A DNA stretch of 32,000 bases, taken from NCBI GenBank assembly GCA_003144275.1, contig NJBF01000035.1, positions 9,288 to 41,287 of the forward strand, given 5' to 3'. The notes below the pieces were generated by a model that worked only from the letters and a program-made list of their open reading frames with translations, was not told the origin of the DNA and did no database searches. This document shows, piece after piece, positions 2,671-12,879 of this stretch. Within the stretch, counting starts at the first letter, position 1. The number at the start of each line of letters is the position of its first letter. Origin of the DNA: Candidatus Heimdallarchaeota archaeon B3_Heim. GTDB taxonomy: Archaea > Asgardarchaeota > Heimdallarchaeia > Hodarchaeales > Hodarchaeaceae. The position numbers were made by a program, and so were the translations under genes.

Positions 2671-2686
2671 ACGTCGTCAAACCAGC
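2671..2686 (+). repeat. Site S2, left half (interrupted by IS)
   Basis: ACGTCGTCAAA-CCAGC. Removing the IS and one CAGC copy restores ACGTCGTCAAA-CCAGCC-TTTGACGGAGT. Confidence 0.85.
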
Positions 2687-3965
2687 CAGTTCTTCGTATC
2701 ACCTCCTTGAAAACTCCTCCTGTCTTCTAAAAAGTGCTTGATGCCATGATGTGACAATGAATTCGCAGAAATCGTTCGCTGAATAAACAAAATCGGCTCG
2801 ACATCGCCGACTAGCTGATTTTAAGATGTGAATCGGTGATTTAAAGTAGGCCCAGAAATTACACAACCAAAATGCAATGAGAACAAGAATGAATCTAAGA
2901 GTTGGGTTTTGAGAACAACTAAAGATTTGAAATCGGTGCATCTGACGATAATAGGTCTCAATCGTGAATCTTCGACGGTAAAGTAAAGCTATCTTCTTTC
3001 CTGAAAGATTACATGTAGTGGGAACAACTAAAGCTATAACACGAGTACCCTCTTGACACAGAGCAAGTTTTACTGGAAATCTCTCGCGGGTGTGACCTTT
3101 ATTCAATTTATAATTCACGATTAGGGCATCCCCTTTTTGAAGTAACTTTTCTTTATGTTTTTGTACTAAAGGTTTGACTCCCGAATTGACACGTCCACGA
3201 ATAATGAAGAAGACCTGTTCACTAACAAGCCACTTAATGAAATCCCAGTTATAGAAGCTACCGTCCGCCAATATTCCAACAATTCGTTCTTGAGTGAGTA
3301 AAGGCATCAAAAGGTTCTGAGCTGTCTTGAAAACAGAATGCTTTGTAGGAACGAGTTGAACCCCTAACGTGATTGGTTCGGGTGCATTTATCCAAATAAC
3401 CGTTATATACTGATAAAATTTATGAGTACTGGCCTTTTTCTTACCTTTACAGATGTAAGGAGAAACCGTCCTTGCATAGTTAGGATCAGTATGAAAATCG
3501 ATCGCTAACAACATTCCTTGCTTTCTTGCGCTTTGAAAGTTCTCGGGAAGACTTTCAAGAAACTTAAGAAAGCCGATTTGTTGTGAGAGCGTAATTTCCT
3601 CAACAGAATTTGTTCTTAACCATGCCAGGGTAGCTTCCCCAGAGGGAATTGGGAGATGTAGCTCGCGAAGATCTCGAGCCTTCCGAGAAATGGAGGTTCG
3701 ATCGAGTGCGGTAAGTAAAAGTAATTTTAACCTGCCTTTCATAGTAAACGGTGATTTAGCAGGAATGGGGGTTGACAAGAATTGAAATCTATCCAACCAG
3801 CGTACCATAAAGTTTATAAGAGTCGGAGTTTTTCTAGCTTTACGTGGCGGAAAGCGAGGTAACTTAAGTTTGGTCATTTGAGTGATTCCTCGCTGGAATC
3901 CACTTTTAAAGGTTTCCCCTCCTTTTTTTTCATCCCGCTCAAAAAAATGAAGTTACGAAGTACTG
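2687..3965 (-). mobile_element. ISH3-family insertion sequence, 1279 bp, apparently intact
   Basis: TIRs CAGTTCTTCGTA (2687-2698) and CAGTACTTCGTA (reverse complement of 3954-3965), 11/12 identical. 4-bp target duplication CAGC (2683-2686, 3966-3969). Contains one DDE transposase. Confidence 0.9.
2699..3877 (-). CDS. ISH3-family DDE transposase
   Basis: 392 aa; motifs LAIDFHTDPNY, ILADGSFY and YRRRFTIETYY (D, D, E triad with YxxRxxIE). The stop abuts the TIR. Confidence 0.9.
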   Translation of the reverse strand: MTKLKLPRFPPRKARKTPTLINFMVRWLDRFQFLSTPIPAKSPFTMKGRLKLLLLTALDRTSISRKARDLRELHLPIPSGEATLAWLRTNSVEEITLSQQIGFLKFLESLPENFQSARKQGMLLAIDFHTDPNYARTVSPYICKGKKKASTHKFYQYITVIWINAPEPITLGVQLVPTKHSVFKTAQNLLMPLLTQERIVGILADGSFYNWDFIKWLVSEQVFFIIRGRVNSGVKPLVQKHKEKLLQKGDALIVNYKLNKGHTRERFPVKLALCQEGTRVIALVVPTTCNLSGKKIALLYRRRFTIETYYRQMHRFQIFSCSQNPTLRFILVLIAFWLCNFWAYFKSPIHILKSASRRCRADFVYSANDFCEFIVTSWHQALFRRQEEFSRR

Positions 3966-3981
3966 CAGCCTTTGACGGAGT
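3966..3981 (+). repeat. Site S2, right half
   Basis: CAGCC-TTTGACGGAGT, identical to the right part of S3. Confidence 0.85.
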
Positions 3982-4044
3982 TCATAAGTTAGAATAATTA
4001 CTTGAGTAGGGAGTGTGTTGAATCCAATCCTATTCGCGAAATTC

Positions 4045-4362
4045 CTAGAACCATTTACTAACCCATTTGTTCAGCCATCTTATCTCAAATAATATTTTCC
4101 CCCAGTGCCAATATCTACGTGGCTTATAGATTTTGACTTGCGGTACAGGTTCCGCATAGAAATTCCCTCTACCAAAACCAGCTTTACCCCCTCCAATTTC
4201 GACAAAACAAGAACCAAAACCATTGTATCGTGTGGTTTTACCTTTTCCAGTTATTTTAACGGCAAGATTATGGGCAAGTACTTCTCTTTGATAATGAGCG
4301 AATACTCCTGCTTTGGGAAGTGGTTTCCCGAGTTTACTACTTTTTCTAAAATTTGGGTACAC
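4045..4362 (-). pseudogene. C-terminal remnant of sulfide:quinone oxidoreductase-like FAD oxidoreductase
   Basis: GKPLPKAGVFAH...GSCFVEIGGGKAGFGRGNFYAEP...WHWGKILFE matches SQR-type C-termini. The N-terminal Rossmann fold and GD motif are absent; only ~100 aa remain. Confidence 0.8.
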
Positions 4363-4434
4363 ATGAAGATTTAAAAATATTCAGTGTTCTGATTGTACAG
4401 TTGTAGCCTTTAATTCTAAAAGGAGAAAAATAAA

Positions 4435-5022
4435 ATGGAAAATTCAAATATTATAGGAAGCTTACTTTTGATTATACTAGTGCCAACAACAATGTTCGTT
4501 GGTATGCCTATTATTTATCCAAGTCTTCAAGCTGACCCCAATTCAACGGGGATTTTAATCCAGGAAAAACATAAATCTGTGAATACAATTGCAGCAATTT
4601 CCGATTGGGCAACGATTTAATATTGTGATGTTCAGGATACTCATTTGGCAATAACTATCCAAAATAATTCTAAAATTCTGGCAATGTTTTCTTCTCCGTA
4701 CTTATTAGTTATATCAGACGACTTTGGACCAAATGAAGCATTAATTTTTAATATCGCATTGAATATTGGTACCGGTACAAAACGAGATACACGAATTGAA
4801 TATACAGAATTAGGAAATGATCTAGCCAGTGCCAGACATATTGGAGGAAATATGTTTATACTCTGTGAAACTGAAAATTTACCTGCTGGGACTTATAATG
4901 TGACTGTATCTTGGATTTCCAAATCTACAGTGAATAATCCTGTTGGAACTAATCAATTACAATTTTCATCCATGTTTCAAAAACCCCAACGAACTTTATT
5001 GGTTCAAGAAATTAAAGGTTAG
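4435..5022 (+). pseudogene. Secreted/membrane-anchored hypothetical protein split by one in-frame TAA (4618-4620)
   Basis: ORFs 4435-4620 and 4645-5022 are in the same frame with an open 24-nt linker (YCDVQDTH). N-terminal hydrophobic segment; AAGGAG SD. Confidence 0.65.
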
Positions 5023-5045
5023 TTTATTAGTTATTTTTAATATGA

Positions 5046-5069
5046 GAGGGTTTTTCCCTTACTTTTTTT
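5046..5069 (+). terminator. Hairpin plus T-tract terminator
   Basis: AGGG-TTTTT-CCCT followed by TACTTTTTTT, just after the 5022 stop. Confidence 0.45.
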
Positions 5070-5256
5070 ATAAATTACTCAAGCAGATTCTTAAATTTTC
5101 ATTAGATTTATGATATTGATATGATCTGATCAGTAATAAATTTCTGATTAGTAATAGATATACAAAAAAAAGGTTATTGGTTCCGAAAATAAAGATTTAC
5201 TACTATCTCGTCCCTAACGAAAGGGAAATGAGTATCTTACTAAAAACGGCGCTGCT

Positions 5257-5420
5257 CCAGTGAGTAATCCGGCTTCTGTTCCCTCTGTTTCGTTACCTTT
5301 ACAGAGTTCCTGACATTAACCTTAGCGCTACTCTCCACAATCTCCGAAGAGATATGTTTTTCAGCTTGCATTCGCTGAGGATGCTCGTTTCACCGTTTCC
5401 CTATTCTTCCTCTGAAGATT
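5257..5420 (-). ncRNA. rnpB: RNase P RNA, 3' half only (truncated copy)
   Basis: Minus strand, in correct order: GGAAACGGTGAAACG (CR-III-like, 5400-5386), TGCAAG, ATCTC-TTCG-GAGAT hairpin, GCGCTAAGGTTAATG (CR-IV-like), CTCTGT/ACAGAG stem, AACAGAAGCCGGATTA (CR-V). No GAGGAAAG-type CR-I upstream. Confidence 0.75.
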
Positions 5421-5423
5421 ATC

Positions 5424-5561
5424 TTATCATCTGTTACCAGTGACTTCACCGCTTCTACTGAGGAACAGACAGCTTCTATGAGTGAAATGACCGATACAGC
5501 TCAAAATCTAACTGAAATGGCTTTAGAATTGTCTAGTCTGGCCTCAAGGTTTAAAGTTTAA
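5424..5561 (+). pseudogene. C-terminal remnant of methyl-accepting chemotaxis protein
   Basis: Translation ...ASTEEQTASMSEMTDTAQNLTEMALELSSLASRFKV* is the typical MCP C-terminus. A pyrimidine-rich terminator follows. No N-terminal part; the 5' boundary is approximate. Confidence 0.8.
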
Positions 5562-5757
5562 ACCTTCCTTCTCTCTTTTCTTTATTATTTCATTTTCAAC
5601 GGAAATGTTTGACGAATTTTCAGAACTAACCTATTCGGGATATTCTGGGCATCTTTTGATGATATTTAAATGAGAAAGCCTAGTAGGTATTCAGAGGTAA
5701 GTTTATCTCTAATTACAATCTCTTTATAGGTTTTTAACTTCAATAGAGGATAAGTAG

Positions 5758-6114
5758 ATGTTTCGGAATCTCCCAATAATAAAACCGATTGAATATACTA
5801 ATAGTCATCTGAAACCTGTTGAAAAACAAAATATTCACCTTTTTTGTGTACAAACCCATCCTGATAAACTCCACCCCATTCCTTTCTCTTCAGAACCATT
5901 GAATGAGGATATGGTTTATCTTTTCATTAATGATGTCTTGCGAAAAATCTTTTTGTGGGTTGGTACGACTGCTTCGATCCGATCCAAATTCGTTGGCGCA
6001 CATTCAGCTATCGTACTCCAACGAAAAACAGGGATTACTTATCGAGTAGAAAATATTGATGAGGATCATGAGTCGGCTGACTTTCGTAGGACTATATCGG
6101 TATTTGAAGCCTAA
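5758..6114 (+). CDS. Single-domain gelsolin-like protein
   Basis: 118 aa; LNEDMVYLF...KIFLWVGTTAS...KFVG...VENIDEDHESADF follows the gelsolin-domain consensus. GAGGA SD. Confidence 0.75.
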   Translation: MFRNLPIIKPIEYTNSHLKPVEKQNIHLFCVQTHPDKLHPIPFSSEPLNEDMVYLFINDVLRKIFLWVGTTASIRSKFVGAHSAIVLQRKTGITYRVENIDEDHESADFRRTISVFEA

Positions 6115-6197
6115 TTAACCACAGAGATTTCTTTCTACAAAAGTGGGAGCTTTGCGTTGTTTATATTAGAAAAAGAATATACTCGGGTATATATTTT

Positions 6198-6225
6198 TCT
6201 TATCTAAACCAGCCTTTGACGGAGT
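6198..6225 (+). repeat. Site S3, preceded by imperfect hairpin 6154-6213
   Basis: TCTTATCTAAA-CCAGCC-TTTGACGGAGT; 21 nt (AAACCAGCCTTTGACGGAGTT) identical to reconstituted S2. Confidence 0.85.
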
Positions 6226-6404
6226 TGGTGAAAAAAAATCATTTTACTAAGCCCTCAAGGGAAAAATAGAATATACAATCTAAGTTTGAACCCCCCTACT
6301 TTTAAGTCTTAATTGTCAAGACGTTGGCTATTACTGAATTTCATAGATGGCTTTATTATTCAGAAAGTATAAAATTGAAGTTGAATAACAATAAGGGAAA
6401 TATT

Positions 6405-9986: not shown

Positions 9987-10153
9987 TCAGACATTACCAA
10001 ATTTATTCAATCCGATTTTGTCTCCATTATCAAGGCATTACTCCTGATAGTTACCTTACATCATCTTAGAATTATTTCATCTAATCTGACTTTATTACTT
10101 CATTCGACTCTCTTTTCTATTATAATGAGAATTTTAGATCCATATAGGTTTAA

Positions 10154-10228
10154 ATGTTCTCAAATGTGAAGATTACCAATTTTATATGTTCTCAAACGTC
10201 AAGAACATAAACCTTATATGTTTTCAAG
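10154..10228 (+). promoter_or_regulatory. Three direct repeats at 32-bp period upstream of ABC operon
   Basis: ATGTTCTCAAA at 10154 and 10186, ATGTTTTCAAG at 10218. The middle copy forms the palindrome ATGTTCT-N9-AGAACAT. Confidence 0.5.
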
Positions 10229-10284
10229 GAAACAATCTCATTAAACATTGATAAGTGCTTAAAAGTGCTCAAGAGTTGGTTTAA

Positions 10285-11193
10285 ATGACTGAACAAATAG
10301 TTCTTGAAATCAATAATCTCAGCAAATATTATGGAAAACTCCTTGCTGTAAATAATGTAAATATTACTGTTAAAACAGGAACAGTTTACGGATTTTTAGG
10401 CCCAAATGGAGCAGGAAAAACCACCACTATTAGAATTATTCTTAGTATCCTCAAACCATCAAGTGGGGAGGTAAAATTATTTGGAATTCCTGTTGATCGA
10501 TCTAATGTTCAAATTCATGATAGAATTGGATATATTCCCGGTGATGTAGCTTTATATGGACATTTAACTGTCAAACAAATGCTTGATTATTTTGCTTCTC
10601 TTAGATCAAATCGGCCCTCATCGCGAATGGAAGAAATGGTGAAATTATTTGATTTGGATGTTACAAAAAATACTAAAACGTTAAGCAGGGGCAATAGGCA
10701 AAAGGTTGCCATAGTTCAAGCGTTTATGCATGATCCTGATTTTTATATTTTTGATGAACCTTCGAGTGGATTAGATCCTTTAATGCAACAGGTTCTATAT
10801 GATTTAATCACTGAAGAAGTAGAAAATGGAAAAACTTTTTTTATTTCTAGTCATTATCTAGGAGAAATCCAAAAAATTGCTAATCTAGTGTCAATAATTC
10901 GAGAGGGTGAAATTATCTCAACCATGGATGTTTCTAAACTTGACCAACAGGTAGTACAGAAAGTCCATATTGATTTTAAATCCGAGGTTAATCCGTCATT
11001 ACTTCAGGATCCGAATATAACGGTATTATCTCAGGACAAAAATGAGTTAATTTTGATAGTAAAGGGTGATTTTCATACTTTTCTTGAAAAAATTTCCAGA
11101 TTTCCCATAGAAAGATTTTATGCACCAGAACCGTCTCTTGAAGACTATTTTATGCATTTTTATGATCTTAAGAATAGATCTGGGGGGAAGTAA
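10285..11193 (+). CDS. ABC transporter ATP-binding protein
   Basis: GPNGAGKTT, LSRGN, IFDEP, SSH; C-terminal 'EPSLEDYF'. Confidence 0.95.
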   Translation: MTEQIVLEINNLSKYYGKLLAVNNVNITVKTGTVYGFLGPNGAGKTTTIRIILSILKPSSGEVKLFGIPVDRSNVQIHDRIGYIPGDVALYGHLTVKQMLDYFASLRSNRPSSRMEEMVKLFDLDVTKNTKTLSRGNRQKVAIVQAFMHDPDFYIFDEPSSGLDPLMQQVLYDLITEEVENGKTFFISSHYLGEIQKIANLVSIIREGEIISTMDVSKLDQQVVQKVHIDFKSEVNPSLLQDPNITVLSQDKNELILIVKGDFHTFLEKISRFPIERFYAPEPSLEDYFMHFYDLKNRSGGK

Positions 11194-12879
11194 ATGAAGG
11201 TTTTTTTTGATAGCATCAGACAAGAAAAAGGATTAATGCTTGCTTTTTTATTCTTTTCAACAGTATTTATCGTATTAATGATCATGATTTATCCAGGTGA
11301 TGAAGCAGCTGTTGAACAAATCACTGGTTTAGAGGATATGGGAGACTGGGAGGCGATTTATGGGATCGTTTATGGAGAGGGAGGTGAATATCGATTCTGG
11401 TTGGCATTGTTTCTTTTTAGTTATATTGGAATTTTATATACAGCAATACCTGCACTCGTGGGTACAAACGTCTTTTCAAAGGATAATGATGATAATACAA
11501 TTGATTTATTAATGTCCAATCCGATAACCAGAAGAAAAATCTTACTAGAAAAAATGTTAGCTGTCTTATCATTGTCTTTTGGATCGATACTTTATTTATT
11601 TCTTGTTATTTATCTTTTATCACTTGTAATTGGCCAAAATATTTCCATTGAATTATTATTTGCATCATGTATTCAATTATTTATACTACTTGTCTTTATA
11701 GGGCTAATCAGTATCTTATTTGCTGTTTTATTCTTAGATTCTGGTCGTGCAAAACGTTATATTGGTATTATAATTGTAGGATCATTCATAATTGGTCTTA
11801 TTGTGTTATTTTCTGAAGAATTAGAATTCCTCAAATATTTTCAAGTTTTCTATTATTATGATAGTGCATCTACAATTCTAAAACCTTCTATTGGACAAGT
11901 TGTGTGGGATAAGGCTCTTTATCTTCTTATTTTCTCTATCCTAATATTTGGAATAATCCTTGTAATAAATGATCGGAAAGATCTTATTCCTCATTTTTCT
12001 CATGAAATTGACGAAAAAAAATCTAAAGAAAAAGGAATTCCATTGCTTTTCTTTTTTGTTGGAAGATTCCAACACCGATTTCCCAGTTTTGTTGAGCAAC
12101 TTCAATCAGATAAGGCATTCATTTACCTGTTTGCATTGTTATTGACAATTTCAGGTCTTGTTACACCATCAATGTATCCTGGAGATGAAGCGTGGGTCGG
12201 TCTTTCAAAGACCTATAGTTCAATGGATGTCTTGATGAGCGCAATTTTACGAGATCATGGTGTTGCAAACTCATTTATTGGATATATTGCTACTGAAGGT
12301 TTTGGAGAGTATTTCCTTTATTCAGGAATAATTTCAATGTTTTTGGGCTCAAAAATTATTATTAGAGATCAGAAATCAAACACCCTAGATTTATTATTTG
12401 CACATTCAAGATCCACCTCTAAAATATTAAAAGAAAGGTTAGCTGCGATAACCTTAGAAATTTTTACCGTCTTTTCATTAAATTATATTGCATATATTGT
12501 AGGTATAAGTTTATATGGAAACGGTTTCAATTATATTCCAATTTTGGGAATTGGAATCTTTCTTACATTTCTAATAGTAATTACAATGACATTTTTAGTT
12601 GTATTGCTTTCCATATTCATAAAAAATCCCAGTAAAGCAATTGCGATTTCAGGAATGACTTATTTTGGAATTCTATTGGTATTTATGCTGGCATATACTA
12701 TTGATCAAATTAAGTTCCTCTCCACTCTGACCCCCTTTTACTGGATTGATAGAATTAGGATCCTTTATGAAGAAACAATTATTTTCGAAGATATTTTTAT
12801 CATTAGTCTATATTTGTGCTTTATTTGTATTATATATTTTATCTGTATTAGGAAAATTAATGGCCGTGAATATTTCTAG
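11194..12879 (+). CDS. ABC-2 permease with internally duplicated domain
   Basis: Two homologous halves, each with YPGDEA and 'NT(I/L)DLL' motifs; ~12 TM. Confidence 0.85.
   Translation: MKVFFDSIRQEKGLMLAFLFFSTVFIVLMIMIYPGDEAAVEQITGLEDMGDWEAIYGIVYGEGGEYRFWLALFLFSYIGILYTAIPALVGTNVFSKDNDDNTIDLLMSNPITRRKILLEKMLAVLSLSFGSILYLFLVIYLLSLVIGQNISIELLFASCIQLFILLVFIGLISILFAVLFLDSGRAKRYIGIIIVGSFIIGLIVLFSEELEFLKYFQVFYYYDSASTILKPSIGQVVWDKALYLLIFSILIFGIILVINDRKDLIPHFSHEIDEKKSKEKGIPLLFFFVGRFQHRFPSFVEQLQSDKAFIYLFALLLTISGLVTPSMYPGDEAWVGLSKTYSSMDVLMSAILRDHGVANSFIGYIATEGFGEYFLYSGIISMFLGSKIIIRDQKSNTLDLLFAHSRSTSKILKERLAAITLEIFTVFSLNYIAYIVGISLYGNGFNYIPILGIGIFLTFLIVITMTFLVVLLSIFIKNPSKAIAISGMTYFGILLVFMLAYTIDQIKFLSTLTPFYWIDRIRILYEETIIFEDIFIISLYLCFICIIYFICIRKINGREYF

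Follow-up and report, generated by a model that had tools for sequence, protein, structure and literature searches.

An RNase P RNA gene fragment abutting a chemoreceptor gene remnant in a Hodarchaeales genome is probably a relic of DNA exchange between species

We analyzed a 32,000-nucleotide (nt) stretch of the genome of Candidatus Heimdallarchaeota archaeon B3_Heim (G000; contig NJBF01000035.1, positions 9,288 to 41,287), hereafter called the window. The assembly is a metagenome-assembled genome (MAG) of 103 contigs, which is 94% complete and has 3.9% contamination. On the minus strand, positions 5253-5449 carry the 3' part of rnpB, the RNase P RNA gene, truncated at its 5' side and identified by blastn and by the Rfam model RF00373. 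Its 197 nt correspond to gene positions ~167-363 of 363. A 5-nt P1 extension (GCGCC, 5248-5252), seen in the alignment, adjoins this rnpB tail. At its other end, the breakpoint between rnpB-derived and chemoreceptor (MCP)-derived DNA lies at 5449-5450, and the plus strand then encodes the last ~36 codons and the stop of an MCP gene (5450-5561; detected by tblastn), a remnant without a usable start codon. The sequence-only reading had described the 3' half of an RNase P RNA lying back-to-back with a chemoreceptor tail, and this observation was confirmed by BLAST, by an RF00373 match of 37.5 bits and by the MCP alignment.

The junction is located in one module (~3981-6198) of an array of co-oriented sites. 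In order, its parts are a gene tail with 87% identity to G004:C284, a promoter-like 56-nt box, a gene which we call X, the tails of rnpB and of the MCP gene, an orphan spacer (5562-5621) that follows the MCP stop and has no relative in the genus, and a gelsolin-repeat gene unit on the plus strand (5622-6142; ORF 5758-6114, Pfam Gelsolin E 2e-6). Gene X (4435-5022, plus strand, 195 codons) is predicted to encode a membrane or secreted protein and runs convergently toward the rnpB tail. An in-frame TAA at 4618-4620 breaks its reading frame, and it has no Pfam match.

The minus strand at ~5254-5449 matched positions 164-359 of the resident rnpB of this genome at 143 of 197 positions (72.6%; E 1e-27, blastn), and the tail matched positions 167-363 of rnpB in the congener G004 at 94.4% (E 5e-84, blastn). 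The similarity to bona fide rnpB genes is thus significant, and the tail belongs to RF00373 as a homologous fragment. Rfam cmscan detected no RNase P match when given the whole window or 4700-6100, even with matches of E≤10 admitted. When 5250-5450 was given alone, the match was regained, because Infernal truncation mode then applies (5253-5450, minus strand, E 1.1e-9, model positions 130-288 of 288, flagged as 5'-truncated). The null result in the window is an artefact, since truncation mode does not apply to a copy that is cut short inside the searched sequence. The sequence-only reading had named the lack of a significant Rfam hit as grounds for rejection, and we first accepted the null as a refutation. 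It was overturned by BLAST against the genome's own rnpB, showing that the proposed test was falsely negative for a correct observation. Covariance-model scans thus overlook internally truncated RNA genes, and an Rfam null does not refute a fragment. A functional member of the family is a full-length match from P1 5' to P1 3', with a gathering score of 84 bits; the window tail, with 37.5 bits and model positions 130-288 only, stays below this.

The alignments show the blocks GUGAAGUC..GGUAACA, GAAUGCAAGC and ACAGAAGCCGGAUUAC in the tail, comprising the CR-IV and CR-V equivalents, and lack of the GAGGAAAUUCC block (CR-I, the P4 5' strand). The claim of ordered RNase P regions III-V on the minus strand was therefore about right. 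At the 3' limit, the alignment reaches the last base of rnpB and the 5-nt P1 extension, and the terminator region follows. In comparison with the archaeal (type A) RNase P RNA of RF00373, the tail is homologous over the second part of the model and has the CR-IV/CR-V equivalents and intact local hairpins, but it lacks model positions 1-129 (P1-P3, CR-I and the P4 5' strand) and has no catalytic core.

The state of the fragment was assessed by aligning it to 13 working rnpB genes and computing an RNAalifold consensus with 87 pairs. Thirty of these pairs depend on the absent 5' half, including the partner of the CR-V-like ACAGAAGCCGGAUUAC block; helix P4, which needs both CR-I and CR-V, retains ACAGAAGCCGGAUUAC and is missing GAGGAAAUUCC. 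Among the 28 wholly internal pairs, three are noncanonical in the fragment, compared with zero to three in the working genes. Eleven positions separate the fragment from G004. Four of them make up two compensatory swaps in one hairpin (CUCUGU..ACAGAG vs. CUUUGC..GCAAAG in the comparison of the fragment with G004), and only one difference breaks a pair. The two compensatory swaps, the single broken pair and the largely intact local helices show that the source, a lineage ~5% diverged from G004, had a functional rnpB and that the truncation is recent. The fragment itself has neither a native promoter nor CR-I. Without the promoter, CR-I and the 5' strands of P1-P4, no catalytic RNase P RNA fold is possible, and we infer that the fragment is inactive and not expressed.

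The window follows G004 rnpB as far as ...CAGTGACTTCAC. Beyond this point, G004 continues with the rnpB 5' half, whereas the window continues with CGCTTCTACTGAGG, which encodes TASTEEQ. The junction is sharp at 5449|5450, and the sequences are unrelated to G004 from 5450 on. An earlier estimate of 5420-5450, made from the letters alone, was correct, and the alignment to G004 narrows it to this single step. The open plus-strand frame (5379-5561) ends with ...TASTEEQTASMSEMTDTAQNLTEMALELSSLASRFKV and a stop (TAA at 5559-5561). Residues to the left of 5450 (..SSVTSDF) come from rnpB-derived bases, and thus the true MCP remnant is limited to ~36 codons and the stop.

In tblastn comparisons, the frame matched the C-termini of 389-423 amino acid (aa) proteins in G020, G018 and G012 at 41-44% over 36-51 aa. 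These proteins have the NILALNAAIEAARAGE chemoreceptor hairpin. The list of ORFs of at least 30 aa with a start codon contains none at the MCP tail, and Pfam MCPsignal (PF00015) gave no score for the 60-aa frame alone: only the last ~36-45 residues align, and a signalling domain with the NILALNAAIEAARAGE tip above the Pfam cut-off is not present. A PDB sequence search with the MCP tail returned weak coiled-coil matches only. In the 22 genus genomes, we found no parent gene or near DNA relative of the MCP tail, only matches to a conserved ~40-nt motif. MCPsignal PF00015 above the Pfam cut-off is absent from the G000 genome, and chemoreceptors seem to have been lost from it. The MCP tail is an old remnant, and its origin is unrelated to that of the rnpB patch. 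We also considered whether the divergent gene upstream of rnpB in congeners is an MCP gene, so that a deletion would explain the junction; these genes encode an M20 peptidase or unknown proteins. Exact-pattern scans of genome, metagenome and viral collections yielded no second copy of the junction or of the tail's diagnostic hairpin.

Other MCP remnants exist in the genus. A second orphan C-terminal remnant is located at G000:C82:105307-105591 (94 aa from stop to stop). MCP tails of ~100 aa were also found in G020 and G010, the one in G020 adjoining a full MCP gene.

The earlier reading had called for a genome-wide RF00373 search for a full or 5'-half copy of rnpB. This search gave one match, a full gene at G000:C91:21523-21882 (128 bits, model positions 1-288), and no 5' half. 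The resident gene lies among housekeeping genes, in the order RsmB/F methyltransferase gene, PUA-domain gene, rnpB and ABCE1, the last 60 nt downstream. Its identity to the G013 rnpB is 96.9%, and the 3.4-kb locus as a whole matches that of G013 at 96%. When the 5' halves (nt 1-170) of 14 full-length rnpB genes of the genus were used as queries, they matched the C91 locus only; the 3' halves of the same 14 genes matched both the C91 gene and the window fragment.

Split and permuted archaeal RNA genes exist, for example the split tRNA genes of Nanoarchaeum. The window resembles them in carrying an isolated half of a structural-RNA gene. However, this half has neither a partner nor a complementary leader, and the genome has a complete gene at another locus. 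The suggestion of a split RNase P RNA is thus not supported: rnpB is complete on C91, and the 94%-complete assembly contains no separate locus with a complementary, orphan 5' half.

The position of rnpB between RsmB and ABCE1 is shared by both clades (G000:C91; G004:C215 and G009:C1:2626000-2639000). In G004 and G009, rnpB is inverted relative to these flanking genes, and extra genes are present on both sides. The 289-aa ORFs found beside the fragment and beside the true rnpB were considered as paralogues that would mark a duplicated locus; their sequences are unrelated.

The similarity to G004 extends beyond the gene. Positions 4827-5449, which comprise the rnpB tail and 426 nt of the G004 rnpB downstream flank, are identical to G004:C215:1-623 at 580 of 624 positions (93%). 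The G004 contig starts there, so 4827 need not be the true left limit of the patch. The 3' part of gene X is common to G004 as well (93% identical). The baseline identity between G000 and G004 is only 64-72% (ABCE1, 72%; rnpB, 71%; RsmB, 67%; other window genes, 64-68%), and the contig backbone is 90-98% identical to G013 (insertion sequence [IS], 98%; several modules, 90-96%) and 84-88% identical to G003 and G020. The window rnpB tail is absent from these three closest relatives.

A foreign and not a native-duplicate origin follows from the identity of 94.4% to G004, compared with 72.6% to the resident gene, and from the continuation of the homology into the flank. The patch is, as judged from these identities, a recent import from a G004-like lineage. 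The donor proper was not found; G004, the nearest genome, differs at 11 of the 197 positions. A decaying duplicate of the resident rnpB could account for the homology to that gene, but it is hardly credible given 73% identity to the resident gene vs. 94% to G004, the compensatory pairs and the G004 homology in the flank. The earlier label of a captured duplicate thus holds in one part: the copy was captured, being foreign (94% to G004 rnpB), and it does not duplicate the resident gene (73%).

The array in which the patch lies comprises seven co-oriented sites, at ~488, 2682/3966, 6209, 7647, 9970, 15835 and 22090, which partition the window into gene modules. In each, a CCAGCC core is enclosed by inverted arms (for example, GTCAAA-CCAGCC-TTTGAC), and several have an ATATAC/GTATAT hairpin just before them. 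A 16-nt form of the site is clustered in 12 of the 22 genus genomes, G004 among them; with the pattern reversed as a control, there were 0 matches. The module with the junction is bordered on the left by the right half of an IS-split, dif-like CCAGCC site (3966-3980, plus strand; left half at ~2668-2686) and on the right by a CCAGCC site with a hairpin before it (6199-6226, plus strand; families D1 and D3). It resembles pdif/Xer-site modules and integron-like arrays in being enclosed by co-oriented sites with inverted-repeat arms and a CCAGCC core. In contrast to the recombination sites of such modules, the rnpB tail is cargo or debris within the module. The 3' end of rnpB (TAATCCAGC, reverse strand) was compared with the CCAGCC site, but the resemblance is too weak, and the window copy reads CCGGC.

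The gelsolin gene, together with ~130 nt upstream of it, is 88% identical to G003:C78 and 84% to G020:C211, where the flanks on both sides are unrelated. The gene and its upstream stretch apparently behave as a unit.

Two further elements of the array were recorded. The IS that interrupts the CCAGCC core at 2673-3965 encodes a DDE transposase and is 98% identical to a G013 copy; G004 has multiple copies, at 73-79%. The 56-nt box (4336-4391) is 93% identical to G000:C22:5132-5187 and carries a TATA-like TTTAAAAATA. The C22 copy lies ~60 nt past a CCAGCC site, and the box may be a shared cassette promoter.

The contrast between patch and backbone bears on whether the contig was assembled correctly. 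Reads of a co-occurring G004-like population could have been joined in during assembly or binning, so that the junction exists in no cell. Mixing of populations is possible in a MAG of this contig number and contamination, the patch is much nearer to another species than the remaining contig is, and the junction occurs in no independent assembly. We nevertheless regard such a chimera as unlikely. At 5449|5450, the two sides share no repeat or k-mer that could have led an assembler from one to the other, and native-clade DNA flanks the patch on both sides (the IS, 98% to G013; the gelsolin unit, 88% to G003; modules, 90-96% to G013), so that two independent mis-joins would be needed. In addition, such tails and mosaics are often seen in congeners with a complete genome in one contig, such as G009.

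When the window fragment was used as a query, matches were obtained in 15 of the 21 congeners. Seven of them (G007, G011, G014, G012, G002, G009 and G017) contain extra rnpB tails of 33-211 nt. In G007, G011, G014 and G009, the tails are co-oriented with an intact rnpB and lie downstream of it on the same contig. The same is probably true of G012, in which the tails lie downstream of a first rnpB copy that is cut by the contig start. The tails of G002 and G017 are on contigs without an intact rnpB. The rnpB 3' end, the 5-nt P1 extension and a T-rich stretch are reached by 14 of the 16 tails (the other two end ~30 nt short), and the 5' limits vary between gene positions 153 and 331. Tail arrays are located at G007:C52:476000-492000, G011:C49, G014:C452, G012:C66, G002:C82 (tails only) and G009:C1.

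Each tail in an array closes a cargo block and is followed by a T-rich terminator of its own. The cargo between the tails includes genes for PadR and a 505-aa protein, for a radical-SAM/SPASM protein and a methyltransferase-like protein, for an ABC ATPase and a 280-aa protein, and for a GNAT-thioredoxin protein, NadA, a ClC channel and a DUF4145 protein. Identical cargo blocks hold different ranks in different genomes. No CCAGCC sites were found inside the congeners' arrays, indicating that the rnpB-tail arrays and the CCAGCC system are separate. No rnpB tails were detected in the G000-clade relatives G013, G020 and G003, and the window tail apparently derives from the tail-making clade. Since seven congeners carry such tails, recombination in the donor clade produces them repeatedly. 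Together with the window fragment, this supports the idea that the rnpB 3' end is a recombination hotspot in Asgard archaea. Our literature search found no publication on rnpB as an integration target or recombination hotspot. Reverse transcription was considered as a source of 5'-truncated tails and is unneeded; integration at the gene's 3' end gives the identical geometry.

Tails in the congeners lie 2-90 nt past cargo genes. With their T-rich terminators, a terminator role is conceivable there, and the local helices of the window fragment are intact. Some role as a read-through transcript or terminator is conceivable for the window fragment as well. A functional RNA piece in the window (a split RNase P half, a specificity-domain decoy, or a terminator or processing element for neighbouring genes) is still very improbable. 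The window fragment has no 5' half, no native promoter and no co-oriented gene directly upstream, and the MCP tail is antisense to it. Moreover, it is missing in the closest relatives, and the neighbouring gene X is broken.

The congener tails resemble scars of genomic islands. Islands that have integrated into a genome reportedly have, at their borders, 3' fragments displaced from tRNA and tmRNA genes (the Williams 2002 model; Islander/TIGER-type elements). Like those scars, the rnpB tails are 5'-truncated copies of a structural-RNA gene that reach its exact 3' end and terminator, and such copies often match the gene of another species better than the resident gene. In the congeners, they are also arranged in tandem, co-oriented behind the intact gene, with cargo between them. 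They differ in that the target is rnpB, that no integrase (PF00589) is nearby, and that the 5' limits are variable and the tails are long (33-211 nt). Tyrosine integrase PF00589, the only family searched, was found neither on the window's contig, C84, nor on the array contigs of G007, G011, G014 and G002. The window copy deviates further, since it lies in another array on another contig, away from the intact rnpB. It ends exactly at the gene's 3' end, but downstream co-orientation with an intact rnpB is seen only in the congeners (G007, G011, G014, G009 and probably G012).

One could ask whether a mobile element entered the genome's own rnpB and left the old 3' end at this place. The geometry of the congener tails fits such an attachment-type fragment, with the exact 3' end and terminator, the co-orientation and the position downstream of the intact gene. 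For the window, we consider this origin quite improbable: the intact rnpB is on C91, followed by ABCE1 after 60 nt as in G013; the fragment and its flank are G004-like and not native; C84 and four congeners' array contigs gave no PF00589 match; and the G000 clade (G013, G020 and G003) is devoid of rnpB tails.

The fragment is, in our view, probably a nonfunctional relic, left when species within one Hodarchaeales genus exchanged DNA, and neither a working nor a split ribozyme. According to this explanation, a piece of the rnpB locus of a G004-like congener would have entered the G000 lineage, bringing gene X, the terminator region between the genes and the final 197 nt of rnpB. The imported piece would now lie in a cassette array of accessory genes, within one module that is enclosed by two dif-like CCAGCC sites. 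Where rnpB is broken, after position ~166, illegitimate recombination would have joined it to the older, unrelated chemoreceptor-tail remnant. This join may have been made in the donor, with the fragment as the tail that closed a packet behind rnpB, or else in G000 on arrival. Both the direction and the mechanism of the transfer are, we infer, as outlined here. Homologous recombination at the resident rnpB is implausible, because the tail is too diverged (73%), and this fits its location elsewhere. The patchwork history is backed by the neighbours, which are also remnants or patches: gene X with its stop, the orphan MCP tail, and the gelsolin unit, which has other flanks elsewhere. Of the readings first offered, that of a rearrangement scar is supported.

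On this explanation, the fragment itself is debris. Its value is that it dates, and gives a direction to, a recent transfer between two Hodarchaeales species that are ~30% apart at the nucleotide level, with pieces of an essential ribozyme gene travelling along with accessory DNA. Together with the arrays in seven congeners, the window tail forms a tie to an undescribed rnpB-tail cassette phenomenon. A further reading, which we consider doubtful, is that the rnpB tail serves as a portable landing pad, carried along with gene packets from one Hodarchaeales species to another. The window copy would then show such a tail, together with its flank, passing a species boundary (93% vs. a baseline of 64-72%) and coming to rest in the second, independent CCAGCC cassette system. 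If true, this would mean cross-talk of two undescribed, integrase-less gene-shuffling systems in the archaeal lineage closest to eukaryotes.

The relic reading leaves tRNA processing to the full-length rnpB on C91, which would serve it. A link between the fragment and a tRNA-like gene 4.6 kb away had been raised on the basis of the letters alone and is unsupported: that gene lies in a different site-bounded module, beside a HEPN-type gene, and the resident rnpB is available for its processing. The tRNA-like gene (580-686) scores 53 bits with the Rfam tRNA model, has a 41-nt insert in the anticodon region and is not called by ARAGORN. It directly follows a 344-aa ORF without a Pfam match.

Elsewhere in the window, positions 10120-12879, which contain genes for an ABC ATPase and an ABC-2 permease, are 92% identical to G007:C3:2777-5536; other matches between G000 and G007 are at ~65-76%. 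This segment is apparently another recent transfer between species.
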